DNA from: Candidatus Omnitrophota bacterium
Lineage (GTDB): Bacteria; Omnitrophota; Gorgyraeia; Duberdicusellales; 4484-171
Reading direction: 5' to 3'
Length of the DNA stretch: 64,000 bases
Assembly: GCA_037146775.1 (NCBI GenBank)
Contig: JBAWWL010000007.1
Coordinates: 65,536-129,535, forward strand
Shown: positions 3,393 to 26,397 of the stretch, in pieces
Position numbering within the stretch: position 1 is the stretch's first letter
Layout of the letters: each line of letters begins with the position of its first letter
Translations under genes and position numbers: made by a program
Notes under the pieces: model-generated
Told to the model about the DNA's origin: nothing
What the model saw: the letters and a program-made list of their open reading frames with translations, nothing else
Databases searched by the model: none

Positions 3393-3394
3393 GT

Positions 3395-10243: not shown

Positions 10244-10245
10244 TC

Positions 10246-10914: not shown

Positions 10915-12562
10915 TAATATTAGTAATGACGTTGGAGGGTTACGGAGAAATTTATCAAAAAAGAGCTTAAAATTCTTTGCGGGAACATATTTTAAACATT
11001 ATTGCAAGGTTGGCTTTGCGCCATTTCATCTGGAGTTCTTTGACTATCTTCAGGGCGTTACATTAAAGCGTAACATAAAGTCTGCGGTTGCAGCCCCTCG
11101 AGGTTATGCGAAGAGTACAGTTGTGAGTCTCATTTATGCATTGTGGTGTATTTGTTTCAAATGGGAGAGCTGCATGGTGATTTTTTCATGCACCAAAGAT
11201 CAGTCGCAAAAACTTTTATCCCACATTAAGGATGAACTTAGCACGAACGAAGTATTGCGGGCGGATTTTCCCGATGTATGCGAAATGCCCAATCCCCGGT
11301 GGAGGGTAGATGAGATTATTACCAAAAACAACGTTAACGTAATAGTCTCAAGTGTTGGAAATCGGATACGTGGTGTGCGCTATAAGGAAGAAAGGCCTGG
11401 GCTTGTAATCTTAGATGACGTTGAGACTCGCGAAAATACATGGACTGCTGAGCAAAGAGAAAATATTCTTGATTGGTTCACCAAGGTTGTGCTTAATCTG
11501 GGTGATGAGCGCACTAATTTTATTGTTTGCGGCACCGTGTTGCACTTTGACAGCCTGCTAGCCAAGCTTTTAAGCGGAGAGGAGCTTGCTGGCTGGGACC
11601 ATGAAATTTATAAAGCTATCCTCAATGAAGCAGATTGCAATGACCTTTGGGCTGAGTGGTCTAATCTTTATCGCAGTAGGAATATTTATAAAGGGCAGAC
11701 AGGCCCGGATGCAGCCAGCCTATTTTATAAGGACAATGAATATGACATGCTTAAAGGTGTGCAGGTCCTTTGGAAGGATAAGGAAAGCTATCTTGACCTT
11801 ATGGTTATGCGGGAGCAAAAAGGAATTCCCAGTTTTGAATCAGAAAAGATGAACGAACCCAAAGACTGTAGGGTAAACAGTTTTAACATAAAAACAGTAA
11901 TTTTCTGGGATGATGATTCGCGGCATCCGACTGTAGAGGATTTAAGGCGGTTTTTAGGCACCCGCATTGCCGTCATCGGGGCATGCGATTCGGCAGTGAC
12001 TGTTTCAAGTAGGAGCGACTATTCGGCGATAGTGACGGCTTTTGTAAATCTGTCCAGCAAGGAAAAGGAACTTTATGTGGTTGACGCCGATGCGGGAAGA
12101 TGGAATGTTAACATTCTCATAGAGAGAATCTGCATTTACCATAAAACAAGGGTATATACCACGTTTATCTATGAGGCAAATGCTGCCCAATCTTGGCTTG
12201 GTGAGATGCTAAAGAAGCAGCCAGCTTATATCCCAATAAAACCCATAACGAACACAGAGCCTAAAGAGGTGCGTATAATGAAGATTATGCTTCTTATTCA
12301 GCAAGGAAAAGTAAAGATTTCAAAAAGGCTGGCTGAACTTACACGGCAGCTTTCCCAGTATCCTTACTGTGCGCATGATGATATTATAGATGCCTTATCG
12401 ATGTTGATTGATGCTGCCGAGAAATATGCTAGTATGAATCCCGGTGAAATGAAGATATTTTTTGAGAAAATCAGGAATGGATCTGCTGGCGATAAAGGGA
12501 AAAAGATTATTCTTTACGGCGATAGGCCATTTAATGATTATGGTGGACTATTAGGAATTTAG
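10871..12562 (+). CDS. phage terminase large subunit
   Basis: Walker A-like 'AAPRGYAKSTVVS'; Walker B 'LVILDDVETRE'; C-terminal RNaseH-like nuclease acidic residues (GACDSAV, CAHDDIIDALSMLID); the start may be the internal Met near 10907. Confidence 0.8.
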   Translation: MKKNLPNRRRKAMNNNISNDVGGLRRNLSKKSLKFFAGTYFKHYCKVGFAPFHLEFFDYLQGVTLKRNIKSAVAAPRGYAKSTVVSLIYALWCICFKWESCMVIFSCTKDQSQKLLSHIKDELSTNEVLRADFPDVCEMPNPRWRVDEIITKNNVNVIVSSVGNRIRGVRYKEERPGLVILDDVETRENTWTAEQRENILDWFTKVVLNLGDERTNFIVCGTVLHFDSLLAKLLSGEELAGWDHEIYKAILNEADCNDLWAEWSNLYRSRNIYKGQTGPDAASLFYKDNEYDMLKGVQVLWKDKESYLDLMVMREQKGIPSFESEKMNEPKDCRVNSFNIKTVIFWDDDSRHPTVEDLRRFLGTRIAVIGACDSAVTVSSRSDYSAIVTAFVNLSSKEKELYVVDADAGRWNVNILIERICIYHKTRVYTTFIYEANAAQSWLGEMLKKQPAYIPIKPITNTEPKEVRIMKIMLLIQQGKVKISKRLAELTRQLSQYPYCAHDDIIDALSMLIDAAEKYASMNPGEMKIFFEKIRNGSAGDKGKKIILYGDRPFNDYGGLLGI

Positions 12563-12580
12563 AAGTAATTATGAAGTAAT

Positions 12581-12796
12581 TTAGAAATCTAAAAGTTTTG
12601 AAGGTTTAGTTTTAAGTGCTTTCGCAAGCCTCCCAATAGTTTCAAGCCTTATATTGGGAGGCTTTTTACTTTCAATCCGCTGAATATACTTATAGTCAAT
12701 ACCCGTTTCTTCAGACAACTTTTCCTGCGTCAAACCCCGTATTTCGCGTAATTTTTTCAGTCTTTTACCCAGTTTTACCCTTATTGACTCTTCCAT
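12581..12796 (-). CDS. XRE-family (Cro/CI-type) HTH transcriptional regulator
   Basis: 'LGKRLKKLREIRGLTQEKLSEETGIDYKYIQRIE' is a classic HTH_3 motif; the only convincing minus-strand gene in the window. Confidence 0.8.
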   Translation of the reverse strand: MEESIRVKLGKRLKKLREIRGLTQEKLSEETGIDYKYIQRIESKKPPNIRLETIGRLAKALKTKPSKLLDF

Positions 12797-13005
12797 AGCA
12801 CCGTATTATGGCACGGTGTTATAGTTGTTGACACCTAACGATATTACGGTGTAACATAGCGATTATCCAAGCAACAAAATATTTTTTAAACGACATGATG
12901 TTGTCGACTGCATTCGTATAATTGATCCATAAGATTTCAGCGACTTATAACAATTTTATGGCCAACTAATTATTAACTTTTATAACCAAAGGCGGAGGGT
13001 AAAAA

Positions 13006-13587
13006 ATGAAAAGAACACCAGAAGAGTGGCTTAAAAAAGTAAAAGAATTGCTTATGGAAAAGTTTGCTGACAAAACCAAAAAATTTTTTACTGAGCGAGA
13101 TATTGTTTATTCGTTACAAGAAGACATAAGAAAGGATATTAAAAACAACAATTTACCATATAAGGTTTTTAATGATTGTCCAATATTGCCAGGCAAGGCC
13201 AAAAGGCCCCTTTGCGCTGACTTGGTTATTATAAGTGAAGATAATTTTGGAGAGTTGAAAAAAAACCCCAAGAATATTCTCAAGAAAATTTGCGCAGAGA
13301 TTGCATTTGAATTCAAGTATGAACCTGATCATGGCAATAAGAGGAAAGATGACTTTCAGCCGAAGAAATTTTTTTCAGATTCAAGAGTCGTTTCTTGGAA
13401 TGGTGTGGAGAAGGACAGAGATCGTATAACAGACTTTGTGAAGAAAAATAAGGCTAAAATAGGATGTTCAGTTTTTATAGATGAAGGTGGGGTATTTCAG
13501 GGCAAATACAGTCCCGAAGAGCATGCCCCATATATAATTTATAAATGTAAAATGGTATCTGGAAAACCTATGCTCGAACCATTTTAG
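13006..13587 (+). CDS. hypothetical protein
   Basis: 193-aa ORF with RBS 'aaaggcggagggt'. Confidence 0.45.
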   Translation: MKRTPEEWLKKVKELLMEKFADKTKKFFTERDIVYSLQEDIRKDIKNNNLPYKVFNDCPILPGKAKRPLCADLVIISEDNFGELKKNPKNILKKICAEIAFEFKYEPDHGNKRKDDFQPKKFFSDSRVVSWNGVEKDRDRITDFVKKNKAKIGCSVFIDEGGVFQGKYSPEEHAPYIIYKCKMVSGKPMLEPF

Positions 13588-13608
13588 ACATAAAAGCAGG
13601 AGGTAGTA

Positions 13609-14076
13609 ATGAAAGGATTGTCGTGGGTTTCTGTCGCAATATTATTAATGATTTGTGGATGCGGTCCAAATCAGCAACAATACATGGGGGGCTTAGAACA
13701 ATCAGTAAAGCCGTTGATCCAGAAAGACCTAACTGAGGCAATTAAATACTTTGGTTTGTCCGAAGATACGGCTACGGTCTCTGAAGTTAAACTTACTAAG
13801 TTTAGTAAGGATAGGAATTATTATGTTGGAAAAGCTAAGATTAATTTTAAACCCCTTGAGATTAATGGTAAAAGAGTTGAAACGAAAGCGACCGTTGACC
13901 AGCTTGGTGCAAGGGAAGTTCCTGTTACATACGAGTATCTTATTGATGTTCAAGTAGCGACTGAAAAGCCGAATGACGATATGTTCAACTATAAATACGA
14001 TTCAGAACAGCTTAGTTTAGCGATTGGTGAATATGTGGATTTGATAATGCAAGTGGCAAGAGCGACTGCAAGATGA
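13609..14076 (+). CDS. putative lipoprotein
   Basis: signal peptide ending in 'LLMICGCG' (lipobox-like); RBS 'aggaggt'. Confidence 0.5.
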   Translation: MKGLSWVSVAILLMICGCGPNQQQYMGGLEQSVKPLIQKDLTEAIKYFGLSEDTATVSEVKLTKFSKDRNYYVGKAKINFKPLEINGKRVETKATVDQLGAREVPVTYEYLIDVQVATEKPNDDMFNYKYDSEQLSLAIGEYVDLIMQVARATAR

Positions 14077-14156
14077 TGGTAAAAAGAATATTTTTCCCTG
14101 CAATAATATATAGAGGTAGAATAAAATGAATCAAACCATTTTTAGGAGGTAATATT

Positions 14157-14252
14157 ATGAAAAAAGTAATTATTGGTGTCGCGTTAACTATCTTGATTGT
14201 TGTTATATTTTGGATGTTGGGTCGATTTCTTGGAGGAAATGTTCGATTTTAA
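14157..14252 (+). CDS. 31-aa single-TM peptide (MKKVIIGVALTILIVVIFWMLGRFLGGNVRF)
   Basis: strong RBS 'ttaggaggtaatatt-ATG'; hydrophobic core; not in the ORF track (<60 aa). Confidence 0.3.
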   Translation: MKKVIIGVALTILIVVIFWMLGRFLGGNVRF

Positions 14253-14437
14253 ATAGGATATTCTATGGTCGCGCACGGCCCATCCATTTTCAGTCTTCTA
14301 CAGACACATTAGCTAAAAAGAGATTGGATACTTTTTAGGTTGGATTGGGTTGAAAAGTAGCTATAATGATAGCCGATATAAGGGAATAAAAGAAATATTA
14401 CGTAAGTATTTGGAGCATTAGCCCTAGCTGGTTTTCT

Positions 14438-15928
14438 ATGAGAGACAAGACTAAAACCTTTCTTTCCAAGAGCAAGTACATGGAAGGGTTGCAATGTAAA
14501 AAACTCCTCTGGTATGAGTATAACCGGAAGGAATTGATTCCGCCGCCTGACCCAGCCAAACAAGCGATTTTTGATGAAGGTACAAAGATTGGAGAAATAG
14601 CCCGTACGCTTTTTCCTGGTGGCATGAAGCTTGAGCGTAATAAATTCCCCGAAGGCCACGATAAACAATCCCGCGAAGCATTAAAAGAACGCCGGCCGCT
14701 GTTTGAGGCCGGTTTTATTGCAAACAGGGGATATGCGTTGGCTGATGTTTTACTTCCGGTAGGCCGCAGCGCATGGGATCTCATTGAAGTTAAAAGCTCA
14801 GCCAGCGTTAAGGAAGAGCATATGCCGGATGTAGCATTCCAGCTTTATACTTATCGTAATGCCGGACTTGACGTGCGTTCCTGCTCTCTTATGTATATTA
14901 ACAACCAATATCTACGTAAAGGTAAGATTGATGCGGGTAAGCTTTTTGCAAAAGAAGATATCAGCGCGCAAGTTGAGGAGTTATTAGGTTATACCAAAAC
15001 CATGCTCCCAAAACTTCTAAGTATTATTGCTCAGTCGGATGAGCCGAAAGTAGAGATTGGCCCGCAGTGCGATAGTCCTTATGAATGCCCGCTTAAGGGG
15101 CATTGTTGGAAGCATTTACCTTTGCATAATAGCGTTTTTACTTTGTATCGCGGGAAAAAACTTGCATTTGAGCTGATGAAGAAGGGAGCCAAAGATTTAT
15201 TCGCAATTCCCAAAGGTACCATGCTTAATGATAAGCAGCAGATTCAACTTGCCTGTTGCGTAAAGAACGATTCTTATGTGGATCGGGATGGTTTGGCCGC
15301 ATTTCTTGAGAAGCTTGAGTATCCGCTGTATTTTCTTGATTTTGAAACGGTTTCTAACGCTGTGCCGTTATATGATCTGTCTCGGCCGTATGAGCAGATA
15401 CCGTTTCAATATTCGCTCCATGTGGTGGAGAAGATAGGTGCTAAGCCGAAGCATTATTCATTTATCGCTCCGGATACGACGGATCCTCGGCCACAGATTC
15501 TAAAGCAGTTAAAAGATTTATTGAAAGACAAAGGTTCAATTATTGCCTATAGCGCGCCGTTTGAAATTGGAGCTCTCGTGCGTTCGGCAGGAATTTATAC
15601 CGATTATATGGATTGGGTGGAAGGCATTAAGGAACGAGTGGTCGATCTGCTTACGCCATTTCGGGCATTTCATTATTATCATCCCAAGCAGGAGGGAAAT
15701 AATTCTTTAAAGGCAGTATTACCGGCTTTAACCGGAATCTCTTATAAAGAAATGGAAATTGCTGAAGGTGAGGTGGCAAGTAAAGAATATGCTCGGGTTA
15801 CTTTCTCGCAAGGTGTAAGTCCGGAAGAGCGCAAGAGGGTATATGAGGCGCTTGAGAAGTATTGCGGCCTTGATACCAGCGGGATGATTGATATATTGCA
15901 GGCGCTTAGGAAGGAAGCAGGGGGATAG
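14438..15928 (+). CDS. DUF2779 domain protein (predicted RecB-family / PD-(D/E)xK nuclease-like)
   Basis: N-terminus 'LSKSKYMEGLQCKKLLWYEY' matches the hallmark DUF2779 start (LSKS+F..GLQC.K+LW); conserved Cys residues in the C-terminal half. Confidence 0.65.
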   Translation: MRDKTKTFLSKSKYMEGLQCKKLLWYEYNRKELIPPPDPAKQAIFDEGTKIGEIARTLFPGGMKLERNKFPEGHDKQSREALKERRPLFEAGFIANRGYALADVLLPVGRSAWDLIEVKSSASVKEEHMPDVAFQLYTYRNAGLDVRSCSLMYINNQYLRKGKIDAGKLFAKEDISAQVEELLGYTKTMLPKLLSIIAQSDEPKVEIGPQCDSPYECPLKGHCWKHLPLHNSVFTLYRGKKLAFELMKKGAKDLFAIPKGTMLNDKQQIQLACCVKNDSYVDRDGLAAFLEKLEYPLYFLDFETVSNAVPLYDLSRPYEQIPFQYSLHVVEKIGAKPKHYSFIAPDTTDPRPQILKQLKDLLKDKGSIIAYSAPFEIGALVRSAGIYTDYMDWVEGIKERVVDLLTPFRAFHYYHPKQEGNNSLKAVLPALTGISYKEMEIAEGEVASKEYARVTFSQGVSPEERKRVYEALEKYCGLDTSGMIDILQALRKEAGG

Positions 15929-16065
15929 TTTAGTTGGAAGTTTTTTTGGGGTTCATGTTTTCCTAATACGCGCAAACTCAATCGCCAAAAAAAGCGGTGC
16001 GTTGAATTGTGTGAGTTGGAATATAGTGAAATTAACTTTAGGGTATTATAGATGGGGGAAGGTCA

Positions 16066-16449
16066 ATGCTATCTAGTAAAGTTGGAATAATTTTAAATAC
16101 GCTTAAGAGTAAGATCGATTCTAGTAAAGGACTCCCAATCTTTTACGATAAAAATGCTAAGTTTGAAAATTGGTTACAAGTGGAATTGTGTGGTATTTTG
16201 TCTGAAAAATGCCAGGCTGAGATTATTCCAGAGCAGTATTCGGAGGCTAATCAATGTTCGTATGATATCTCTGGCGAAAAGGTATTGATTGAGCTTAAAA
16301 TTCATACTACAAAAAAGTCAGCTTCGCATAATATAAAAGGAATTATCAAGGATATCGAAAAATTAAAAAGAGCACCTGATTCAAAAGAAAAAGCAATAAT
16401 TTTTGTAGCTTTCCCGCTAAAGTATAATGATAAGGAATGGGTAACCTAA
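16066..16449 (+). CDS. hypothetical protein
   Basis: 127-aa ORF. Confidence 0.4.
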   Translation: MLSSKVGIILNTLKSKIDSSKGLPIFYDKNAKFENWLQVELCGILSEKCQAEIIPEQYSEANQCSYDISGEKVLIELKIHTTKKSASHNIKGIIKDIEKLKRAPDSKEKAIIFVAFPLKYNDKEWVT

Positions 16450-16582
16450 TTGGAAAATATAGCTCCAAAAGAGAGTTTTATTCGATACTATAGATCATTA
16501 AAGTTTAAGGGTGCCGGTAGAGAAGGTGTTGTGTATTTTATCCAACCGTTGCATAAACTTGAGTCGGTGATATTATAAAAAT

Positions 16583-17524
16583 ATGGCACTTCCTCCTAAG
16601 AGTAACTACGATCATAAGTTTTTTCGCCTGCTGTTTATTTTGAATAAACTTGACCGTGGTGAAAAGGTTTCTACGCTTTCTCTTGCCAAGGAGTTTAACG
16701 TTAAAATCCGCACCGTTCAGCGCGACATAGCCTTGTTATGCGGTACTGGGTTCCTGATTGAATCTCTTGAAAAAGGCACCTACTGTTTTGAAAAAGGTTT
16801 TTCTCTGCGTAAGATCCATCTAAGCGGCGAAGAGGCATCTTTGCTTTCCTTCATGTTTGAAATCGCAAAGTCTTTGGGTTCAAATTTTGAAGGGACTTTT
16901 CGGAGCGTACTGGCTAAGGTAATCCAGAAGGAATATGAATATCCTTATTACGCCAAGATCCCGTCTTCTGAAACATCTTTTAAGGAATTGCCATTCATCA
17001 AGGATCTTGAAAATGCAGTCAGCGATAGCTGTAAGATAAACTTAAAATATAAAAAAGATGACAATTTAAAAGAGTATCACCTGTGCCCCCTTAAGATAAT
17101 CTTTTTTGACGGGTTCTGGTATCTTCTGGCTCAGGGCGATAAAGAGAAGCAGATAGTTAAATTCCGGCTCGACAGGATCAAGCATGTCGCTCTTCTCGAT
17201 GAATATTTTACCCCGCCCGGAAACATAAAAAAGATTCTCGACCAAAGCGCGAATATCTGGTTTTCAGGAAAGAATAAATATAAAGCTATTCTGCATGTCG
17301 ACAAGCAGATATCCGATTATTTCAAGCAGAGAAAATACTTTCCTTCTCAGAAGATAACAAAAAAGAATAAGGATGGTTCGCTTATTATCGAGAGCAGTTA
17401 TTCAGACATGGCAGAAGTAAGCCACACCATAATGCACTGGCTGCCGCATATAGTTGTTACAGGACCAGAAGATTTAAAGAATGAAATCAAGGCTAAGATA
17501 GAAGAATACCGCAAAAGGCTGTAA
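16583..17524 (+). CDS. WYL-domain transcriptional regulator (HTH + WYL; YafY/BrxR/CapW-like)
   Basis: N-terminal HTH 'KVSTLSLAKEFNVKIRTVQRDIALL'; WYL motif 'FFDGFWYLLAQGDKEKQIVKFRLDRI'. Confidence 0.8.
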   Translation: MALPPKSNYDHKFFRLLFILNKLDRGEKVSTLSLAKEFNVKIRTVQRDIALLCGTGFLIESLEKGTYCFEKGFSLRKIHLSGEEASLLSFMFEIAKSLGSNFEGTFRSVLAKVIQKEYEYPYYAKIPSSETSFKELPFIKDLENAVSDSCKINLKYKKDDNLKEYHLCPLKIIFFDGFWYLLAQGDKEKQIVKFRLDRIKHVALLDEYFTPPGNIKKILDQSANIWFSGKNKYKAILHVDKQISDYFKQRKYFPSQKITKKNKDGSLIIESSYSDMAEVSHTIMHWLPHIVVTGPEDLKNEIKAKIEEYRKRL

Positions 17525-17690
17525 AAAGCCTGCTTTCAAGCGATACAACCTTGCCACTACCTCGTGTGGCGCACTTTCTTATTCCGCAAAAATCTTTTTC
17601 AAAGCGACATAACCTTGTCGCATGCCTATGTTACATTTAGAACTATCCTATTGAATATTATATAAACTAACTTGATAATAGCCGGTTTCT

Positions 17691-19190
17691 ATGGCTATAT
17701 ATGCAAAAAGGAGGTGTGTTATGGAACAAACTTTTTCAGCCCAAAGCTTAAATAGTAATACGCTAATAAAGGATGATATCAGCCTTCAGCCTCAAAAAGA
17801 GGCGGTTATTTTGGCTAATGACAAGGAGTATCTCGATGATTATTTTGAGATTTATCGTCTTTATCTACTCAAGCGCACTATTCTGAACAAAATTCAAAAT
17901 AAGCGCTCTAAGTGTGAGTTGTCCGGAAAGGGAAGGTTTAACGGCCGCATTGTCATACTTAATAACCGGATACTAAAGCAGGAGACGATATTCTGGCAGA
18001 AGGTACAAGAGGGTCAAACGCGCGGAATAAAGTTCGCCATTGAGGAAATCGCGGCCAAATTCAATCTGGATTTGTTTGAAAAGAAATTACTGCTTTTTTT
18101 TCTTTACCTTGAATATTTTGCCGTTGAGAAAAATATCTGTATGGAAGACGAATTGCTTTGTATCTTTGATACCGAAAACTCCGTATTGTCCAGAATGCGA
18201 AATAATAAGTATTTTAAGAAGGATTCAGTCCTGCTTAAGAATGGACTGCTTGTCAAGGATTTTAGAGCGAATTCTGCCAGCGCAAGAGCTGAAATTACGC
18301 TTAGTTCCAAGGCGCTGGATATTATTTCAACAGTTTTAAATGGCGGAGAATACCTGGAAGTTGAATCCAAGAAAGCCACTTCCAGCGGAACGATAGGCTA
18401 TGTCAAGGAGCCGGAGTATAAACTTGAGGATATTTTTTTAAATGAAGATATTAAAGGGAAAATTACATTATTTCTGGATGCTTATAGGGATAATAAATTT
18501 GAGGCCTTAGGGGTTACGCAGAGAATAAAGAAAGGTTTAGGCGCGGCGTTTCTTTTTTCTGGCCCTCCCGGAACAGGAAAAAGTATGCTTGCTGAGGCAG
18601 TCGCGGCATACGTCGGGAAGAAGGTGTTGATGGTAGAGTACCCAAAGATAATGGATCACTGGGTTGGTGCGACCGATAAGAATATATCAACAATCTTTAA
18701 AAGCGCTGAAGAGGAGAATCTTGTGGTTATTCTTGATGAAGCAGATACTCTTTTTTATAACAGATCATTTGCTCTTGAAGAACACGATATAAGGTTTGTA
18801 AACGAAATGTTGCAGGAACTGGAGAAGTTTAAAGGCATAATTATCCTTACGACAAATATGGATATTTTACTTGATCCGGCGCTCGAAAGAAGGCTTTCTT
18901 TGAAGGTGAAGTTCGAGCTTCCTCCCAAGGATACACGCTCTCAGATATGGCAGTTCCACATTCCAGACAAAGTCAGGCTGGCAGAAGGGGTTAATTTTGA
19001 GATGCTGGCGGCAAAGTATGATTTCTCGGGAGGCAATATCAAGAATGCGGTTTTAAACGCATTCAGGAAAATGGCCTCAAGAAACAGCGATACGCTTACT
19101 TTGGAAGACTTGATTTTCGGAGCGAACTTAGAGAAAGACGGCATGTTTAATTCCAAGGCCCAAAGAAACGTTGTTGGCTTTTCCTCTTAA
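17691..19190 (+). CDS. AAA+ ATPase with an approx. 260-aa N-terminal domain of unknown function
   Basis: Walker A 'FSGPPGTGKSMLAEAVA'; Walker B 'VVILDEADTLF'; sensor/arginine finger 'ILTTNMDILLDPALERRL'. Confidence 0.8.
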   Translation: MAIYAKRRCVMEQTFSAQSLNSNTLIKDDISLQPQKEAVILANDKEYLDDYFEIYRLYLLKRTILNKIQNKRSKCELSGKGRFNGRIVILNNRILKQETIFWQKVQEGQTRGIKFAIEEIAAKFNLDLFEKKLLLFFLYLEYFAVEKNICMEDELLCIFDTENSVLSRMRNNKYFKKDSVLLKNGLLVKDFRANSASARAEITLSSKALDIISTVLNGGEYLEVESKKATSSGTIGYVKEPEYKLEDIFLNEDIKGKITLFLDAYRDNKFEALGVTQRIKKGLGAAFLFSGPPGTGKSMLAEAVAAYVGKKVLMVEYPKIMDHWVGATDKNISTIFKSAEEENLVVILDEADTLFYNRSFALEEHDIRFVNEMLQELEKFKGIIILTTNMDILLDPALERRLSLKVKFELPPKDTRSQIWQFHIPDKVRLAEGVNFEMLAAKYDFSGGNIKNAVLNAFRKMASRNSDTLTLEDLIFGANLEKDGMFNSKAQRNVVGFSS

Positions 19191-19377
19191 CAAAGAAGGC
19201 ATTATGAAATACAAAGAATGGATGAAGTTGATTCGTAAGCATCCGCATAAGGATCTCAACGGAAAAGTTATCTTTTATGATATCGATGGCACAGCGCTGG
19301 GTGAGGTTGTTTATAAAAAGGGTAAAGTGGTCTCAGGAAGAGAATACGTGATTAGAAAAAAAATGGATAAGTCATAG
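19171..19377 (+). CDS. hypothetical small protein
   Basis: 68-aa ORF overlapping the stop of the AAA+ gene. Confidence 0.3.
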   Translation: MLAFPLNKEGIMKYKEWMKLIRKHPHKDLNGKVIFYDIDGTALGEVVYKKGKVVSGREYVIRKKMDKS

Positions 19378-19394
19378 CCAGGGAGGAGGTAAAG

Positions 19395-19688
19395 ATGATA
19401 AAACGACAGGGGGATTTACTGATTGTTAAGGTGGAGAAAATTCCCGAGGATGCGCAAACGCAGAAAAGCCGTATATTGGCCGAAGGAGAGGCAACCGGCC
19501 ATATGCACGAACTAGACTCGGGGGAAGTTTATGAAAAAGACGGAACACTGTACTTTAAAGTAGCAGAGGGCGGGAATGTGACTTTGAAACATCCGGAACA
19601 CGGTCCGCTTCAATTCGATGAGGGAGTTTACCAAGTAATCCGTCAGCGTGAATATATTCCAGAGGGTTGGCGCCGTGTCGAGGATTGA
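19395..19688 (+). CDS. hypothetical small protein
   Basis: 97-aa ORF with RBS 'ggaggaggt'. Confidence 0.4.
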   Translation: MIKRQGDLLIVKVEKIPEDAQTQKSRILAEGEATGHMHELDSGEVYEKDGTLYFKVAEGGNVTLKHPEHGPLQFDEGVYQVIRQREYIPEGWRRVED

Positions 19689-20391
19689 CCGGCAGATAAA
19701 GTTTACCTGGCTTGACGGAAGGCTTGTGTATCATAAATATATAGGTGATAGGGAATTTGCTGTTGCAGCCGGATATTTTCCTAATGGGAGGCCGCAATTT
19801 CATTTCCCTATGCGCAAGGGTCGGTTCCACGGTATTTGTCGGTTTTGGCGGGAGTCCGGTCTGCTAGAATCAGAGGAAGAATATCGTGACGGCGTCTTGG
19901 AAGGTTTTGTGCACAGGTGGTATCCCAACGGGATATTGGGAGCTAAGCTTCTTTATTCCCGCGGTCTTCGGAACGGCCCTTCCAGGCATTGGGATGAGCA
20001 TGGGGAGCTTGTTTCTGCCAAGGTCTATCTTCGCGGCAGAGAGGTGCCCGAAGAAATCTCCGGGCGTATCTTGGATAAGAAACTGAACGCAAGCTATATA
20101 CTTGAAATAAAAAATGCTGAATTGCGTCGTTTTTGTCTTGAAGAGTTTGGCTATGAGCGGTTTGCTTCGCAAATGCAGCATCGGGTTATTGATAAGAATG
20201 GAGAGCAGGAACTTGTATGCATTACCTGGATAAATCGCGAGGAACCAATTTATCTTGTAAAAGTAAAATGCCCTTCAACAGGCGTGTTTTACACCCTACG
20301 TGTTCCGCCGGACATGAATACTGTTAAACAAGCCATAGCTTGGACATTTAACATGAAAGAGGATGAATATCTCGCTAGCCAGGAAACTTAA
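19648..20391 (+). CDS. MORN-repeat / YwqK-like protein
   Basis: repeats of the G-x-x-x-G-x-W-x-x-Y/W type (GRFHGICRFWRESG, GVLEGFVHRWYPNG, GLRNGPSRHWDEHG). Confidence 0.5.
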   Translation: MNIFQRVGAVSRIDRQIKFTWLDGRLVYHKYIGDREFAVAAGYFPNGRPQFHFPMRKGRFHGICRFWRESGLLESEEEYRDGVLEGFVHRWYPNGILGAKLLYSRGLRNGPSRHWDEHGELVSAKVYLRGREVPEEISGRILDKKLNASYILEIKNAELRRFCLEEFGYERFASQMQHRVIDKNGEQELVCITWINREEPIYLVKVKCPSTGVFYTLRVPPDMNTVKQAIAWTFNMKEDEYLASQET

Positions 20392-20615
20392 TAATCTTGA
20401 GGTGAGCTATAATTTATTATGGTTGAAATTATACCGGCCGGTATTCTTTACGATAAGTCACATTACTTGACAGAGTTTAAATTTATGGCATACTTTTTAT
20501 GGTTACCCGCGTCCCGAGTTAGAAGGATTAAATCCCGGACGTTAAAAAAGCAAAACCTTCGTTGGTCAAGTTATGGCCGATGAGGGTTTTTTTATTTTAA
20601 GTTGAGAGGATAGGT

Positions 20616-21881
20616 ATGGAAACTAAATTAGTCATCGAGGGTGGTCGAAAAATTAAAGGAGAAGTAGAGATCTCCGGCTCAAAGAACGCTTGTTTGCCTA
20701 TATTCGCCGCAACTCTTTTGACGGATGAGCCATGTCGAATTATAGGGGTACCGGGGCTGCGAGATATCAAAACAATGGGCGAGATCCTGGAGCTGCTAGG
20801 AAAAAAGGTGCAGACAGATAGGAACGCTGTAACCATTACCTCAACCACTAAGCGCAGCTTTATAGCAAACTATGAACAGGTTAAAACAATGCGGGCTTCG
20901 TTCTGTGTACTGGGGCCGCTTCTTGCAAAAGCAAAGAGAGCCGAGGTGTCTTATCCCGGAGGTTGCGCAATAGGCGATAGGCCCGTAGATATACATCTAA
21001 GAGGCCTTAAAGAGCTGGGTGCAAGAATAGCTATTGATTCAGGATATGTGGTTGCAAAAGCTCATAAGTTAAAAGGAAGCTATATATATTTAAGTGGGCA
21101 TTTCGGTTCTTCGGTAACGGGTACAGCTAATGTTATGATGGCCGCAACGCTGGCGCAAGGCAAGACAGTGATTGAGGGAGCGGCTTGTGAGCCCGAGGTA
21201 GTGGATTTAGCGAACTTTCTTATTAAGATGGGTGCCCATATCAAAGGGCACGGCACATCAGTCATAGAGGTAAATGGTGTAAAAAAACTACACGGGGTAG
21301 ATTACAGGGTTATTCCTGACAGGATCGAAGCGGGTACTTTTATCCTTGCTGCTTTAATAACTAAGGGAGATATTATCATAAGGAATATCGACTACCGTCA
21401 TTTAGGTGTTGTGGTAGATTGTCTAAGGAAAATAGGAGCGCATATTGATGTGGGGAATAATAAGCTACATGTGGCTTTTAAGAATATATTAAAACCTACA
21501 AACGTGACCACTCTTCCGTATCCCGGTTTTCCGACTGATATGCAGGCGCAATTTGCGAGTTTAATGTGCGTAACTCCGGGGGTAAGCATTATTACTGAAA
21601 AGGTATTTCCCGACAGGTTTATGCATATCGCGGAACTAAGCAGGATGGGGGCGCATATTCATAGGGAGGGTGCAAGCGCTATTGTGGAGGGGGTAAAGAG
21701 TTTATCTGGGGCACCGGTTATGGCATCAGATTTACGAGCCTCGGCTTCTTTGGTGTTAGCTGGTCTTGCCGCAAGGGGCAAGACGTCGATTTCAAGAATC
21801 TATCATCTAGAGCGTGGCTATGAAAATCTGGATAAAAAAATGATTAAATTAGGCGCAAAAATTTGGAAAGAGAAGGATTAA
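20616..21881 (+). CDS. murA: UDP-N-acetylglucosamine 1-carboxyvinyltransferase
   Basis: full-length match to MurA (GSKNACLPIFAATLL..., KTMRASF..LGPLLA, catalytic region 'YPGGCAIGDRPVD', C-terminal 'DLRASASLVLAGLAA.G.T.I.RIYHL.RGYE'). Confidence 0.95.
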   Translation: METKLVIEGGRKIKGEVEISGSKNACLPIFAATLLTDEPCRIIGVPGLRDIKTMGEILELLGKKVQTDRNAVTITSTTKRSFIANYEQVKTMRASFCVLGPLLAKAKRAEVSYPGGCAIGDRPVDIHLRGLKELGARIAIDSGYVVAKAHKLKGSYIYLSGHFGSSVTGTANVMMAATLAQGKTVIEGAACEPEVVDLANFLIKMGAHIKGHGTSVIEVNGVKKLHGVDYRVIPDRIEAGTFILAALITKGDIIIRNIDYRHLGVVVDCLRKIGAHIDVGNNKLHVAFKNILKPTNVTTLPYPGFPTDMQAQFASLMCVTPGVSIITEKVFPDRFMHIAELSRMGAHIHREGASAIVEGVKSLSGAPVMASDLRASASLVLAGLAARGKTSISRIYHLERGYENLDKKMIKLGAKIWKEKD

Positions 21882-22089: not shown

Positions 22090-23799
22090 ATGAAAGAATA
22101 CAAAAGAGAAACCATCCAAAAGACAGTAGAAGAAATTAATAAGAACATGTTTTTACCGGATATCCAGAGGCCGTTTGTCTGGGAGGAAGAAAAAATTTAC
22201 AAGTTGTTTGATTCTTTAATGCGGGGTTATCCGATAAGTACTTTTCTTTATTGGGATCTAGCCAGAGAGCAGATTGAGGCGTCCAACATTAAAATGTACA
22301 AATTTGTAGATTCGAATGATGAAGATAGCGCTCAAGTGATGAACGTAGATAAAGATAAGTATTCTTTAGTATTGGATGGGCAGCAGCGATTAACTTCTTT
22401 ATATATATCTTTAAAGGGCTCATGGGTTGAAAAGGTACGTAAAAATACTTTGATAAAAGAGCTTTATTTCAATGTGCTTAGCGGTGGGAACGAAAACGAA
22501 GAAGGTATTCTGTATGAGTTTTGTTTCTTGCCTAAACAATATGGTCCTTTTTATGCAGAAAAGAAGGATGAAGCTTCTGGAGCTAAGGCGTGGGTTAATA
22601 TTAAAAAAGTATATGAAGCGGACCTCGGAAAAAGCGATAAACGTAAATTATTCGTGAAGAAGATTATTGAAACTAATTCCGATCTGAAAACTTATGAAGA
22701 TGCGATAGATGATAATATCGATAAGTTCGATGAAGTCCTTAAGGACCAAGGGATGATTAATTATTTCCCTGAAGATGAAGATAGTTATGATAAGGTTTTA
22801 GATATTTTTGTTCGAACAAATGCCGGTGGAACAAAACTTAGTTATTCAGACCTTCTTTTTTCAAGAATAAAACTTCATTGGGATCAGGCAAGGGAAGAAT
22901 TTAAGGATCTCACTGATGAAATTAATAAGAGGAACTTTGAGTTTGATACAGACTTTATTTTAAAAACAGGTCTAGTATTTTTCTGCACTAAGACAGAAGA
23001 AATAAGATTTAACAACATAAATAATTTGAATAAAAATCTGATTTCTTCAATAAGAAAAAATTGGCTAGAGATAGCTAATGCTATTAAGCTGACAGCTGAT
23101 TTATTGGACAGGTTCATGATAAGGGACAAAAAAATGCTCCCCAGTTACAATGCTTTGATTCCAGTAATATATTGGGTATTTAAAAATAAGAAGGGACGAT
23201 ATTATGACGATAACGACGCCGATAGAAATGAGCTCACAAAAGTAAGAATTTGGTTAACTAAAGCTTTGCTCAGTGGTGTGTTTGGCGGACAATCAGATAC
23301 AGCACTGTATAAATGTAAAGAGGCGATGGATGCCAGTCCGCTGTCTTCTGTTTTTCCGGCAGAGAAAATTCAAGAAAAGATACTTGAGATGAAAAGCAAA
23401 AGTATGGAAATTAGAGAAGATAAATTTGATCAATTTCGCTATCAATCAAAAGAGAGCCATTTATTTTTATCGCTATGCTACAGGTTTGCAATTAATTTTA
23501 ATCCTATAATGAAAGGTAATCTACCGGAACAAGATCATATATTTTCTAAGCATGAATTAGAATTAGCTGGCGTTAGCGAAGATAAAATTAATAGCATATA
23601 TAATATTAGGTACGTTACACAAGCAGATAATAGAAAGAAATCAAAAACGCCATTTTCAGATTGGGTAAGAGATTTAGAAAAAAATAAAGATTTGGTGTTT
23701 AAAATACATAATATACCAGACCGAGATTGGAAGGTTGTTGATTTCGATGTATTCTTGCAAGAAAGAAAAAAACTGTTATTGGCAAACTTACAATATTAG
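22090..23799 (+). CDS. GmrSD/BrxU-like DUF262-DUF1524 protein (type IV modification-dependent restriction endonuclease family)
   Basis: DUF262 signature 'LVLDGQQRLTSLYI' plus N-terminal 'FLPDIQRPFVWEEEKIYKLFDSLMRGYPI'; C-terminal His-Me/HNH-like DUF1524 region 'DHIFSKHEL...NIRYVTQADNRKKSKTPFSDW'. Confidence 0.75.
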   Translation: MKEYKRETIQKTVEEINKNMFLPDIQRPFVWEEEKIYKLFDSLMRGYPISTFLYWDLAREQIEASNIKMYKFVDSNDEDSAQVMNVDKDKYSLVLDGQQRLTSLYISLKGSWVEKVRKNTLIKELYFNVLSGGNENEEGILYEFCFLPKQYGPFYAEKKDEASGAKAWVNIKKVYEADLGKSDKRKLFVKKIIETNSDLKTYEDAIDDNIDKFDEVLKDQGMINYFPEDEDSYDKVLDIFVRTNAGGTKLSYSDLLFSRIKLHWDQAREEFKDLTDEINKRNFEFDTDFILKTGLVFFCTKTEEIRFNNINNLNKNLISSIRKNWLEIANAIKLTADLLDRFMIRDKKMLPSYNALIPVIYWVFKNKKGRYYDDNDADRNELTKVRIWLTKALLSGVFGGQSDTALYKCKEAMDASPLSSVFPAEKIQEKILEMKSKSMEIREDKFDQFRYQSKESHLFLSLCYRFAINFNPIMKGNLPEQDHIFSKHELELAGVSEDKINSIYNIRYVTQADNRKKSKTPFSDWVRDLEKNKDLVFKIHNIPDRDWKVVDFDVFLQERKKLLLANLQY

Positions 23800-23834
23800 C
23801 ACACGATGCAAAAATTATATATACATTCTAAAGC

Positions 23835-23962
23835 GTAGAGAAAAATGGTTTTTAATTTAAGGATTTACTTTTTATAGTACTGCGTGATGCACATCACTTG
23901 AATAGCCACCTAAAGAATGATTGATTTAGCTTATCGTATATCTAAATGTAATATTTGTATCG
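23835..23962. repeat. 128-bp direct repeat, copy B
   Basis: near-identical to 21902..22029; upstream of the TPR gene at 23981; a third partial copy (approx. 38 nt) at approx. 54640..54680. Confidence 0.85.
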
Positions 23963-23980
23963 TATGGAGGTGTATCTAAT

Positions 23981-24703
23981 ATGATAAATCGCATAAAGGA
24001 AGTAGATTTTAATTCGGAGAAGGGAAGATTGTTAGATCGTGCATTGGCTCACTCAAAATTGAGGCTGTATAAAGAAGCAATTGCTGATTGTGAGAATCTT
24101 GTAGCACTGGATAAAGATGATCCAAATTCTTACAGAGAGCTGGGGGTTTCGTATGCAGAAAACAATCAAATTGATAAAGCTATAGAGTGCTATCGTTTTG
24201 CTATAAAGCGTTTCCCTGATTACCATGCAGCCTATACAAGCTTAGGGCATCTATTTCAGGAATACAAAAAACGATTGGATATTGCTCTGGTGTGTTATGA
24301 AAAGGCGTTAAAGCTTAACCCTGAAGATTTTTGGGCATTGCATAATATTGGTACTGTTTTAAAGAAAGAACAAAAAATAAAAGAAGCCTTTTATTATTTT
24401 CAAGAGGCGTTCCAAATAGCACAAGCTAAGGGAATCTTTGAGCGGAAAATAATTCATAATTTGGCGTGGGCCTTATATCGGTGTAAGGAATACCAAGCCG
24501 CACTTTATTTGTATACGCAACTTGATGATCCATATAGTACCGATGGTTCTATCCATTTTGAACTCGGTTGTGTTAATTATAGAATAGGTAGATTCCAAGA
24601 CGCTGTTTTACAATTTGCAGAAGCGTTAGCTTGTCAGCCAGGCAATAAGTTTTATCAGCGTGCACAGAACATAGTAATTTGTAAATCCGGCATTTATAAT
24701 TGA
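23981..24703 (+). CDS. TPR-repeat protein
   Basis: multiple TPR-like A..Y.....A...DP motifs (AIECYRFAIKRFPDYHAAYTSLG, ALVCYEKALKLNPEDFWALHNIG). Confidence 0.7.
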   Translation: MINRIKEVDFNSEKGRLLDRALAHSKLRLYKEAIADCENLVALDKDDPNSYRELGVSYAENNQIDKAIECYRFAIKRFPDYHAAYTSLGHLFQEYKKRLDIALVCYEKALKLNPEDFWALHNIGTVLKKEQKIKEAFYYFQEAFQIAQAKGIFERKIIHNLAWALYRCKEYQAALYLYTQLDDPYSTDGSIHFELGCVNYRIGRFQDAVLQFAEALACQPGNKFYQRAQNIVICKSGIYN

Positions 24704-24715
24704 AAGTATATACAG

Positions 24716-25516
24716 ATGATTGGCGCTATTGCAGGAGATATAATTGGTTCTATCTACGAATTTACGAATGTTAAAAGGACAGATTTTGATTTGTTCAGCA
24801 AGCACTCTCATTTTACCGACGATACTGTCCTGACCATCGCCGTAGCTGATTGTATTTTAAATGGAAAAGATTATGCAAAAACCATCAAAGAATATGGTAG
24901 GAGATATCCTGATAGAGGTTATGGCATTCGTTTTAAAGGATGGCTTTTGTTAGAGGAATCAGCGCCATACAATAGTTTCGGCAATGGTTCAGCGATGCGT
25001 GTAAGCCCTGTAGGATTTGCTTTTGATGATATTAACAAAGTGATGGAAGAGGCAAAAAAGAGCGCCGAGGTTACCCATAATCATCCGGAAGGCATAAAAG
25101 GCGCACAAGCGATAGCCATTGCGATATTTCTTGCTAAGAACGGTGAAAGAAAAGAGAATATCAAAGAGCATATTGAAAACACCTTTAATTATAATTTAAG
25201 GCAAACTTTAGAAGAAATTCGTTCAAGTTACCATTTTGACGAAACATGCCAGGGTACGGTCCCGCAGGCCATAACCGCATTCCTTGAATCCAATAGCTAC
25301 GAAGATGCTATACGAAAAGCAATCTCTATCGGCGGAGATAGCGATACAATTGCCTGTATTACCGGAGGTATCGCTGAGGCTTATTACAAAAACATTCCTG
25401 ATTATATTGCAAGAGAGTCGATGAAGCGCCTATCGCCAGAATTATTAAATACTGTGAATTTGTTTACTAAGACGTATAATTTTTCTAAGGTATCATTGTT
25501 GAATAGGTGGGGATGA
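24716..25516 (+). CDS. ADP-ribosylglycohydrolase family protein (DraG/ARH-like)
   Basis: 'MIGAIAGDIIGSIYEF', 'HFTDDTVLTIAVADCIL', 'GNGSAMRVSPVG', 'IGGDSDTIACITGGIAEAYY' are conserved ARH motifs. Confidence 0.85.
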   Translation: MIGAIAGDIIGSIYEFTNVKRTDFDLFSKHSHFTDDTVLTIAVADCILNGKDYAKTIKEYGRRYPDRGYGIRFKGWLLLEESAPYNSFGNGSAMRVSPVGFAFDDINKVMEEAKKSAEVTHNHPEGIKGAQAIAIAIFLAKNGERKENIKEHIENTFNYNLRQTLEEIRSSYHFDETCQGTVPQAITAFLESNSYEDAIRKAISIGGDSDTIACITGGIAEAYYKNIPDYIARESMKRLSPELLNTVNLFTKTYNFSKVSLLNRWG

Positions 25517-25523
25517 CGGTGGT

Positions 25524-25676
25524 ATGGCTAGTAATGAGTATTGTCGGGTAACGTTCGGGAAGAATATTGAAGAAAAAGAACGCCAACGTGTACGGGCAGC
25601 ACTCGAGAAATATTGCGATTTAGATACAAAGGGGATGATGGAAATATTGGAGGAATTAAAAAAAGTTTGCAGATAG
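25524..25676 (+). pseudogene. relic of a DUF2779-protein C-terminus (MASNEYCRVTFGKNIEEKERQRVRAALEKYCDLDTKGMMEILEELKKVCR)
   Basis: clear homology to the last approx. 45 aa of the 14438..15928 product (ARVTFSQGVSPEERKRVYEALEKYCGLDTSGMIDILQALRKE). Confidence 0.55.
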
Positions 25677-25695
25677 ATGCCTGTATAATGGAGAT

Positions 25696-26397
25696 ATGCG
25701 AGGAGGTAGCAAAATGAACGGAAATAGTTTTAAAAAACAGTTGTTTGATTATCAAAATAAAGTGAATGATTGGATTAAATTCAGAAAAAATAAAAAAGGG
25801 ACCCAGTTTAATAAAGAAGAAAATACAAAAATAAAATTTGTCGTTTCTCTTTTGGATATTTTAGGATGGAATCCTTTAAAAGGGTATGATGTAGAATTTG
25901 AGCATCACATTCCGAAAGTCAAAGGTAGAGACGCCGCCGATATCGCGCTTTATATCTCTTCGGAGAAGCATTCCAAACCAGTAATTTTGATTGAAGTCAA
26001 ACCTATTCAAATGCCGTTTAAAAAAGAGTATCCTACAAAAATTCTCGAATATATGAGTAGAAGTAAAGTAAGATTTGGAATTAATACTAACGGAAGAGAA
26101 TTGGTACTTTTCCATAGCTATGGGGTAAGGCATGATGCAAAGTCAGGCTGTAAGCTATTTAGTTTAGAGCTAAAAGATTTCATTGTTTATAAGGATGTTT
26201 TATTGATGCTGTCAAAGCGAAAGGTTCAAGAAGGCGTATTGGATGGATTTGCCGATGAATTCCATCATGGGAAAAAGTATGGAAAGAAATTTTCTGATTG
26301 GAGAAGACCCGAAAAGAAATATCGGGACCCGAGATATAATAAATATATACTTCGTTTAAAGTTCGCAAAAGAATTCTTAAAACATAACAACCAATAG
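25696..26397 (+). CDS. HsdR_N-like PD-(D/E)xK nuclease-fold protein
   Basis: 'ENTKIKFVVSLLDILGWNP...EFEHHIP...RDAADIALYI...KPVILIEVKP' resembles the N-terminal domain of type I restriction R subunits (D...D/E-x-K core). Confidence 0.5.
   Translation: MRGGSKMNGNSFKKQLFDYQNKVNDWIKFRKNKKGTQFNKEENTKIKFVVSLLDILGWNPLKGYDVEFEHHIPKVKGRDAADIALYISSEKHSKPVILIEVKPIQMPFKKEYPTKILEYMSRSKVRFGINTNGRELVLFHSYGVRHDAKSGCKLFSLELKDFIVYKDVLLMLSKRKVQEGVLDGFADEFHHGKKYGKKFSDWRRPEKKYRDPRYNKYILRLKFAKEFLKHNNQ

Follow-up and report, generated by a model that had tools for sequence, protein, structure and literature searches.

A candidate WYL-controlled operon of an AAA+ ATPase, two small proteins and a MORN-DUF6745 protein in a variable genomic island of Omnitrophota

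The described systems closest to the locus analysed here are built around the WYL-domain regulators DriD and PafBC. DriD of Caulobacter crescentus is a homodimeric WYL activator of an SOS-independent DNA-damage response. It was crystallised on ATACGACAGTTACTGTCGTAT, and its motif CGAC-N6/7-GTCG is found in the promoter of DriD itself, too (PMC10853764). For PafBC the consensus tGTCgg(N10)tA(N3)T was described, where the -35 element gives way to one at -26, and the mechanism of sigma adaptation has been shown structurally only in mycobacteria so far (PMC8635444). We analysed a 64-kb stretch of contig JBAWWL010000007.1 from a Candidatus Omnitrophota bacterium (the window), in which the gene for a WYL regulator is followed by genes for an AAA+ ATPase, a 57-aa and a 97-aa protein, and a protein with MORN repeats and a DUF6745 domain (16583-20391). 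An earlier note on this DNA had viewed the locus as a single phage defence system under a BrxR/CapW-type repressor. We see about an even chance that it is instead one operon of a clustered regulon under a DriD/PafBC-type WYL protein, a regulon probably induced by single-stranded DNA (ssDNA), DNA damage or infection.

The five open reading frames (ORFs) all lie on the + strand where they had been placed before (ORF list of the window). Pfam confirmed the WYL, AAA+ and DUF6745 domains, and the AAA+ motifs stand in the translation. Several starts had to be revised. The regulator (HTH_11-WYL-WCX, 313 aa) extends from 16583 to 17524 on the + strand. The start of the AAA+ gene (17721-19190, +; Pfam PF00004) is most likely ATG 17721, with AGGAGG in front, and not 17691. 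The resulting 489 aa are the length in the NCBI annotation and are shared by all AAA+ homologues; the motifs GPPGTGKS, ILDEAD and DPALERR stand as first described, while the length of 499 aa does not. Of the two tiny ORFs, the second kept its 97 aa (19395-19688, +) and belongs to the phrog_27831 family (PHROG, E 1.7e-15). The first (labelled s68; 19204-19377, +) encodes 57 and not 68 aa, from an ATG at 19204 that is conserved in 10 homologues together with the N-terminus MKYKEW. The last ORF opens at 19648, but the gene most likely starts with GTG 19675 and encodes 238 aa (19675-20391, +; MORN repeats and DUF6745, Pfam).

With these starts, the AAA+ and 57-aa genes do not overlap at 19171/19190, as had been proposed, but are 13 nt apart. 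A gap of 17 nt separates the 57-aa and 97-aa genes, and the 97-aa and DUF6745 genes do overlap at 19648/19688, by 14 nt instead of 41. Every start in this unit has a ribosome-binding site. A hairpin that resembles an intrinsic terminator, its 17-bp stem followed by a T run (20552-20590, +), precedes murA (20616-21881), the first gene past the terminator. Tight spacing and terminator argue for a transcription unit, and we regard the AAA+, 57-aa, 97-aa and MORN-DUF6745 genes as one predicted operon that ends before murA. The operon suggested earlier is thus borne out by spacing and terminator. The argument from the common strand carries no weight, since practically every gene of the 64 kb lies on the + strand. 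GC skew is positive across the whole window. Between the WYL gene and the AAA+ gene there are 196 nt, which contain the promoter and operator.

The window regulator has an N-terminal helix-turn-helix (HTH) domain followed by WYL and WCX domains, the composition of a WYL-domain transcription factor, and each domain scored above its Pfam cut-off (HTH_11, 3e-7; WYL, 3e-13; WCX, 1.9e-9). This is the same winged HTH-linker-WYL-WCX architecture as in DriD. In a sequence search of the PDB the nearest solved structures were those of DriD (7U02, 7TZV and 8TP8, E about 2e-5; the identity of 7TZV and 8TP8 as DriD was verified) and the second-nearest solved homologue was PafBC (E 1.5e-3), while structures of BrxR and CapW gave no match at E<=1. 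The predicted recognition helix is KIRTVQRDI. Across all regulators of related islands the HTH motif EFNVxxRT(V/I)QRD is nearly invariant, and this fits the invariant half-site described below.

The promoter region of the AAA+ operon contains the palindrome GCGACA-TAACCT-TGTCGC (17604-17621, +), followed after 10 nt by the -10-like element TACATT (17632-17637). The half-sites CGACA and TGTCG are identical to those of the crystallised DriD site. At the -35 position the hexamer ATAACC agrees with TTGACA at only 3/6 positions and thus provides no usable -35. Read in the manner of PafBC, the sequence is TGTCGC-N10-TACATT without a -35, which corresponds to the -26/-10 promoter layout. DriD half-sites and PafBC geometry, together with the closest solved relatives, speak against the BrxR/CapW-type repressor assumed before. 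Some features separate the locus from both models. The Omnitrophota targets cluster round the regulator, while those of DriD are scattered, and they are uncharacterised proteins and not recA, recJ or didA. PafBC comes from another phylum, and there is no proteasome context here.

We gathered 31 distinct AAA+ loci, the window included; individual loci are denoted by numbers with the prefix L. Metagenomes were scanned with an N-domain alignment of 7 sequences, as one of 17 was too divergent. Exact CGACA-N6-TGTCG sites occurred 46 times in 295 kb of deduplicated related Omnitrophota loci, against an expected 0.075 (first-order Markov simulations, n=200; mean 0.075, maximum 1). The remaining fetched loci, a background of 2.41 Mb that included distant AAA+ loci of other phyla (genome-collection scan with the full-length AAA+ alignment, whose patterns were generic Walker motifs), held 6 exact sites. 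TAnnnT followed TGTCG at a distance of 10-11 nt in 37/46 sites, and in none of the simulations. By our own count from the site table, 40/46 sites lie within 200 nt upstream of the start of a + strand gene. The operator core is invariant in the upstream regions of AAA+ or 57-aa operons that were aligned, although the AAA+ proteins encoded there are only 45-70% identical. In L081, L090, L121 and L124 the operator precedes the gene of the WYL/HTH_11 regulator itself, as has been described for DriD, but it does not do so in the window. Most other conserved island genes are preceded by it, too, among them those for AAA+, the 57-aa protein, c36, c37-97aa-DUF6745, PAD_porph, c24, c26, DUF2779, a second AAA+ family, a DnaJ-like protein and a tetratricopeptide repeat (TPR) protein (c and p numbers are our labels for island families).

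The window contains 2 exact sites where 0.016 are expected. The second, CGACATGATGTTGTCG (12891-12906, +), has TATAAT ten nt later (12917-12922) and lies between a divergent XRE gene (12581-12796, -) and a 193-aa gene (13006-13587); its spacer to the -10 is the same as in the WYL-gene sites of L124 and L081. No exact operator was found before murA, GmrSD or any further gene in the 64 kb. On these data it is quite likely that the island operator is bound by the WYL protein. An activator appears the most likely type of regulator because a -35 is missing, the layout is that of the PafBC -26/-10 promoter and the closest relatives are DriD and PafBC; we therefore hold activation to be somewhat more probable than repression.

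In six loci tandem operators are found with a start-to-start distance of exactly 59 nt (L104, 7861/7920; L106, 2154/2213; L107, 138/197; L109, 5998/6057; L111, 1932/1991; L123, 10164/10223), and the -10 is present only at the downstream copy. The corresponding pair of the window starts at 17540/17604, a distance of 64 nt. Here the upstream copy, TTCAAGCGATACAACCTTG (17535-17553, +), is degenerate and lies 64 nt before the main site. This arrangement suggests cooperative or looping binding. Written in longer form, the spacer between WYL and AAA+ genes holds two copies of TCAA(R)GCGAYAYAACCTTG, the promoter-proximal one being the palindrome at 17604-17621; with 0.04 expected, a degenerate third copy stands inside the WYL gene.

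A second conserved non-coding block, ACTTGATAATAGCCGGTTTCTATGGCTATATATGC (17670-17704, +), is located between promoter and ribosome-binding site. It is kept in 7/8 aligned upstream regions with the pattern CTTGATAATAG-N9-TATGGCTATAT. Equivalents were seen in L081, L087, L101, L115, L117 and L124, and in L082 and L093 the block stands upstream of the operator. Candidate roles of the block are a second promoter, a further operator and a leader; a promoter and nothing else is improbable, since in L124 the block ends 3 nt ahead of the start codon. Rfam gave no match to this block, nor to any other part of 12000-21000, and an RNA hairpin was rejected, as its stem is not kept in the homologues.

The reading as a self-contained anti-phage operon would have a BrxR/CapW-like WYL repressor hold the genes off, with the AAA+ protein as sensor or motor and MORN-DUF6745 or the small proteins as effector, by analogy to IetAS and TRIP13 systems. 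We consider this unlikely. Its regulator would indeed resemble BrxR and CapW in being an HTH-WYL-WCX protein beside an operon with a palindromic operator in a defence-rich neighbourhood, and the palindrome reaches over the -35 position, so that a repressor might act there. The defence-like surroundings noted earlier are also real: a GmrSD/HEC-05-type gene is near, and type III restriction-modification (RM), PLD, AbiV and TIR genes occur in related loci. However, the PDB matches are DriD and PafBC and not BrxR/CapW, and the controlled genes form no recognised defence system. A regulator conserved directly upstream, as in BrxR and CapW, was not found either; this adjacency is unique to the window, and in the other loci 1-7 genes lie between, or the regulator is downstream. 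In L089, for example, a close WYL homologue is followed by c36, AAA+ and then directly by murA. Of the 21 AAA+ loci with enough flank, 12 have the gene of a WYL protein or a close HTH_11 relative at a distance of no more than 8 kb. The link between WYL and AAA+ genes proposed earlier therefore stands, by the shared operator and by these 12 loci, and the fixed position directly 5' does not. A clustered WYL regulon leads one to expect exactly a constant gene set in variable order, with a WYL gene that is linked but not fixed in the 5' position.

In the AAA+ protein, PF00004 matched residues 288-409 of the 17691-19190 ORF with 92.3 bits (cut-off 21.2 bits). Walker A (GPPGTGKS), Walker B (ILDEAD) and the second region of homology (DPALERR) with its arginine fingers are complete and invariant in 16 homologues, which places the protein in the classical AAA+ clade. 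The best solved matches of the AAA module are the D2 domains of VAT, Cdc48 and p97 (E 1e-52 to 1e-48); the window protein differs from these proteins by its single AAA module and an unrelated N-domain. The family comprises proteins of 450-520 aa, mostly from Omnitrophota, with 1,430 members at E<=1e-3 among 8,000 candidates scored.

The protein begins with a disordered stretch (residues 1-33), after which come a helical hairpin (34-100), a winged helix (106-206) and the AAA module (about 260-480). The AlphaFold2 (AF2) model of residues 1-245 (pLDDT 87) shows the disordered tip, the long hairpin and the winged-helix domain. The N-terminal region had been said to match nothing recognisable, but it has a weak match to the Pfam domain PF22977 ('WHD'), which many homologues carry in precomputed annotation; Foldseek returned weak MarR/PadR-like winged-helix matches only, and both agree with the winged helix of the model. 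Searching 1.84 billion proteins with the N-region gave only 53 cluster representatives. Those of near full length have almost all about 410-540 aa, and the others look like fragments. The N-domain profile had no match among PDB sequences, the N-domain none in IMG/VR viral contigs, and PF22977 is not mentioned in the literature searched. Judged by this distribution, the N-domain is restricted to its lineage and has not been taken up by other proteins.

Among named families, IetA/IteA score best with the AAA module (PADLOC 1e-35; NCBIfam 7.5e-30), which is a point for a defence operon. IetA and the window protein are both single-ring AAA+ proteins of the classical clade. However, the IteA model NF042959 reached 104.3 bits against a cut-off of 510 bits, over residues 235-479 only, and the PADLOC models of IetA likewise cover the C-terminal half (about 235-485); the N-domain differs. 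A peptidase domain, as expected of IetS, the subtilase partner in IetAS, was found neither in the ORFs of the window scanned by Pfam and PADLOC nor among the called genes of related loci. IetAS was rejected on these grounds; the literature on IetA gave no mechanism. A CBASS/HORMA-TRIP13 system was also rejected, since Pfam and PADLOC returned no HORMA or CD-NTase match and the TRIP13 models matched weakly (1.8e-11), confined to the generic AAA region.

A further group of relatives comes from contractile-injection clusters. An ATPase encoded after tape-measure genes in such a cluster on an Azospirillum plasmid aligned at 99.9% probability (hhalign, residues 148-476, i.e., part of the winged helix, linker and AAA module), and a homologue from a Streptomyces sheath/baseplate cluster at 99.8% (residues 222-449, linker and AAA module only). 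These ATPases, which we take to be of the Afp15/Pvc15 type, share overall size and layout with the window protein; neither the helical hairpin nor the first half of the N-domain has a counterpart in them. Membership in a contractile injection system was rejected, as the 8-10 kb around the Omnitrophota homologues examined contained no sheath, tube, baseplate or tape-measure genes. IetA and these ATPases from contractile-injection clusters are the nearest relatives of the AAA+ protein, which is neither an IetA equivalog nor a housekeeping enzyme.

PADLOC, NCBIfam and Pfam hold no model for the 57-aa or the 97-aa protein, and for the DUF6745 protein the only model in these collections is the Pfam domain-of-unknown-function entry. 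A single defence system is not supported: PADLOC is silent on these three gene products, and no IetS, HORMA, toxin or nuclease effector was found in the operon (Pfam, PADLOC). PHROG matched only the 97-aa protein among these three, and phrog_27831 is a family without assigned function. The gene for the 57-aa protein, the conserved small partner of this AAA+ family, adjoins the AAA+ gene, upstream or downstream, in 10/22 distinct loci with flanks. The 57-aa protein aligned weakly with the last MORN hairpin and next strand of the DUF6745 protein (residues 98-134; hhalign probability 49.5%, E 1.7e-4), and could extend or compete with the beta-sheet of MORN-DUF6745. The 97-aa protein carries the His/Glu-rich motifs GEATGHMHE and HPEH, and its profile had no match in the PDB. 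It has at least 360 homologues. Nearly all of the 120 listed have 95-101 aa, and their identity to the window protein is 64-88%, which is unusually conserved for a gene in an arms race.

The last gene product matched DUF6745 (PF20530) with 62.3 bits against a cut-off of 27 bits, at positions 85-206 of the 206 profile positions, and is a member by the Pfam threshold even though MORN repeats replace the N-terminal part. MORN_2 itself stayed below threshold (17.5 vs 29.6 bits). The AF2 model (pLDDT 94) shows ten MORN-type strands, then a helical and beta-meander domain, and searches with this structure recovered the MORN part only, as did a PDB sequence search. Thus the MORN nature of the protein, proposed earlier, is supported by its fold. 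Its likeness to YwqK antitoxins did not hold up: YwqJK was rejected, since no toxin gene is adjacent, and the partner is the 97-aa phrog_27831 protein, with which it forms a pair common in early regions of phages. The core residues N147, E149, R151, R152, G159, R162 and L180 of DUF6745 are kept from phages to Omnitrophota and Cys199 is variable, so that there is no obvious catalytic set. The literature searched does not mention DUF6745.

In IMG/VR, 87 stretches encode relatives of the 97-aa protein. A gene of the DUF6745 family adjoins the homologue in 69/82 viral loci where the homologue was located, and Pfam DUF6745 scored above threshold in 8/8 viral neighbours tested. Frequent neighbours of the pair on viral contigs are DnaB, RecT-like, exonuclease, RusA, methylase and HNH genes, and this context marks the pair as a module of the early replication/recombination region. 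The Mycobacterium prophage prophiGD102-1 carries it as gp37/38, two genes past a RepA-like initiator, and in the Microcystis phage Ma-LMM01 it is gp175/174, amid genes for DNA polymerase, exonuclease and uracil-DNA glycosylase. Phage and Omnitrophota pairs (phrog_27831 with phrog_31813/DUF6745) share families, adjacency and the core motif NxExRR...G. In Omnitrophota, by contrast, the N-terminal half of DUF6745 is replaced by MORN repeats, and the pair is associated with AAA+ genes and the WYL operator. The N-terminal halves of phage DUF6745 proteins are variable and carry long (S/D)QV(G/R/W/E) repeats, such as SQVGDQVRSQVG, in L169:8850-9980 (IMG/VR) and in other phage proteins. From its families and neighbours we identify the 97-aa and DUF6745 genes as a phage module.

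Wherever an Omnitrophota locus has both genes, the 97-aa gene stands directly 5' of DUF6745; only in L109 does one gene intervene. In 12/21 loci the pair is no more than 5 kb away from the AAA+ gene. In L123 (7332-8690) and L104 (4725-6179) a second AAA+ family is directly 5' of the pair. It has the Walker A GEPGNGKT, PF00004, about 450-480 aa, an unrelated N-domain and its own CGACA-N6-TGTCG promoter. That a different AAA+ family takes the same place strengthens a functional tie between pair and AAA+. The gene set thus may be seen as two separable modules, AAA+ with the 57-aa protein, and the 97-aa and DUF6745 pair fused to MORN repeats. That phages themselves carry this pair in early regions is a further argument against an anti-phage operon.

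It is also a point for an element origin. If the locus were part of an integrated mobile element, a prophage remnant or satellite-like, its genes would serve the element's own early functions with WYL or XRE as switch. In the window, 8993-12796 encodes a protein with ParB-N and N6/N4 DNA methylase domains, a 222-aa HTH protein (c32), an apparently intact large terminase (TerL; phrog_38, E 1e-92) and a divergent XRE protein, 5-9 kb upstream. ParB-methylase, c32 and XRE(-) recur without the terminase in L093 and L122, and c32 with XRE(-) in L081. A serine recombinase stands at the block edge of L121, and DnaB_C, HNH, FtsK-like and HTH_17 genes occur in the islands. The AAA+ homologue of Desulfobulbaceae lies beside an integrase fragment and an excisionase, and that of Dehalococcoidales is preceded by an XRE(-) gene and two small genes. 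On the other side, the scan of ORFs at 86-31845, whose coverage was not exhaustive, revealed no gene for a portal, capsid, tail or integrase protein, and no tRNA genes were detected in the window. The N-domain is absent from IMG/VR, and none of the 82 viral loci with a 97-aa homologue has AAA+, WYL or the 57-aa gene within 10 kb. Chromosomal synteny recurs, with murA in the window and L089 and A2M-PBP1C in L119 and L123, and the island contains decayed fragments and not a coherent element. We regard a mobile element as distinctly unlikely. An intact prophage was rejected, as only TerL, ParB-methylase and XRE were found among the scanned ORFs. We claim no insertion boundary either; the only long-range repeat near the locus has 14 identical bases, which is at chance level.

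The islands of the related loci share a set of families in varying order: PAD_porph, a metallo-beta-lactamase (MBL)-fold hydrolase, the PD-(D/E)xK-like p127/c26, c24, c36, c37, SIMPL, TPR, DnaB_C, HNH, DUF2779/Cas4-like, DnaJ, divergent XRE, ParB-methylase and c32. That the gene set is separable and shuffled does not favour a self-contained defence operon. The order PAD_porph-p127-AAA is kept in L083, L084 and L117. In the window the 127-aa gene p127 (16066-16449, +), with a weak match to REase DpnII-MboI/PD-(D/E)xK-like domains (Pfam E 0.004), lies upstream of the regulator gene; its homologues adjoin AAA+ or WYL genes in L083, L084, L090, L102, L104, L117 and L119. Directly after the DUF2779 gene we found a remnant of PAD_porph, its last ~40 codons (15915-16031, +; tblastn best E 7e-8), which is intact just upstream of p127/AAA+ in related loci. 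A C-terminal DUF2779 fragment of 50 aa is located at 25524-25676. Both remnants point to gene flux in the island.

More island members follow past murA, a 326-aa gene and an MBL gene (27649-29909). The GmrSD/HEC-05-type gene (22090-23799; PADLOC 2.5e-129) belongs to a segment (22090-27145) that also encodes a TPR protein, an ADP-ribosylglycohydrolase, an HSDR_N-domain protein and an HD-domain protein. As island and defence genes continue 3' of it, murA is embedded in the variable island and does not form its edge. GmrSD and the other non-regulon genes of the window carry no operator; recognised defence genes have been inserted among the regulon genes. To the right of the island, L119 and L123 have an alpha-2-macroglobulin-like gene (A2M; 1617-1619 aa) and then PBP1C, while the islands of the window and L089 abut murA. 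This suggests that the island occupies a few recurrent chromosomal positions.

Left of all these genes, the block 1407-6575 encodes a 661-aa protein with GrpE-like C-terminus, a 660-aa Hsp70-like protein, which matches the PADLOC candidate family PDC-M61B (E 1.3e-10), and a 299-aa protein. It is bracketed by a 132-nt direct repeat, 79% identical (1201-1332/6658-6789), and flanked by a 36-nt repeat family (496-531/1125-1160/6583-6618), so that it looks like a cassette. The locus could also be read as a vertically inherited, domesticated chromosomal cluster with an ordinary role, e.g., in protein quality control together with DnaJ-, Hsp70- and GrpE-like genes, and with no link to conflict or damage. 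The very strong conservation of the 97-aa and DUF6745 proteins would agree with this, and so would the order PAD_porph-p127-AAA-57aa-97aa-DUF6745-SIMPL, which recurs at AAA+ identities of 45-70%. DnaJ-domain proteins are encoded in L081, L082 and L117, in addition to the Hsp70- and GrpE-like genes at 1407-5377 of the window. We nevertheless find such a cluster very unlikely: duplications and remnants occur and both the order and the copy number of the genes are highly variable, a WYL operator of their own speaks for conditional and not constitutive expression, the AAA+ family stands beside integrases in other phyla, and the match of the Hsp70-like protein is to a candidate defence family.

A regulon of the DriD/PafBC type, our preferred explanation, has to be weighed against several observations as well. 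The half-sites are spaced by N8, one base longer than the N6-7 of DriD. PafBC is a PafB/PafC heterodimer (or fusion) with a non-palindromic site, whereas here we find a single gene and a palindrome. The promoter of the window's own WYL gene has no exact site. The palindrome spans -40 to -23, a place suited to a repressor, too, and the homodimeric WYL repressors BrxR and CapW likewise bind palindromes. We infer binding of the operator by the WYL protein from similarity and co-occurrence, and XRE or another HTH protein of the islands could bind it instead. The loci were collected via AAA+ or DUF6745 homologues, which biases co-occurrence upward, and many contigs are short. The AAA+ gene occurs without the pair in L082, L087 and L089, and the pair without this AAA+ in L122 and L124, so that a joint function is not obligatory. 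Finally, RM, GmrSD, TerL, ParB-methylase, XRE and recombinase genes are present in the same islands, and roles in defence, in an element or in the damage response are inseparable.

The content of the regulon is in agreement with a response to DNA damage, replication stress or infection. It includes the nucleases DUF2779/Cas4-like, MBL-fold, PD-(D/E)xK-like and HNH, a DnaB_C/RecA-like ATPase, two AAA+ families and the pair from phage replication regions. What the data show directly is the gene structure, the family relationships, the conserved pairings, and the operator with its statistics and its likeness to DriD and PafBC sites; activation, the signal and the biochemical roles of all four products are inferred. 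In the mechanism that we propose, the neighbouring DriD-like WYL protein, of the homodimer type, would control the promoter of the AAA+ operon. A signal, for example ssDNA bound by the WYL domain, would switch the regulon on upon DNA damage, replication stress or phage infection; that the regulator senses a signal of the ssDNA type is plausible, with the chances evenly balanced. The AAA+ protein and its 57-aa partner may then act as an ATP-driven remodeller, with the hairpin/winged-helix N-domain picking the target. This remodeller might work with or on a complex of MORN-DUF6745 and the 97-aa protein, assisted by the 57-aa protein. A bolder version, in which the AAA+ machine, a winged-helix unfoldase with the 57-aa protein as adaptor, and the captured phage pair constitute a new ssDNA-triggered anti-phage or DNA-damage-tolerance system within a phylum-wide WYL-activator regulon with promoters like those of sigma adaptation, is unlikely in our view.

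The type of regulator, the clade of the AAA+ protein and, as an idea, WYL control of stress or defence genes were already known. New observations are the gene set, the operator and the way it clusters across the phylum, and the derivation of the pair from phages. Should the regulon not exist in this form, the locus would still be a well-delimited candidate operon within an island of defence and mobile-element genes. If the explanation is true, WYL activation of the DriD/PafBC type, including the -26/-10 layout, would be extended to an uncultured phylum, and CGACA-N6-TGTCG would provide a precise operator for reading a whole regulon from sequence alone. More than 12 gene families of Omnitrophota would come under one signal, giving a first handle on orphan genes. 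A pair of no known function from the early regions of diverse tailed phages (Mycobacterium, Microcystis, IMG/VR) would be tied to AAA+ proteins, and the family of IetA and contractile-injection ATPases would gain a third context, without protease or injection machine.

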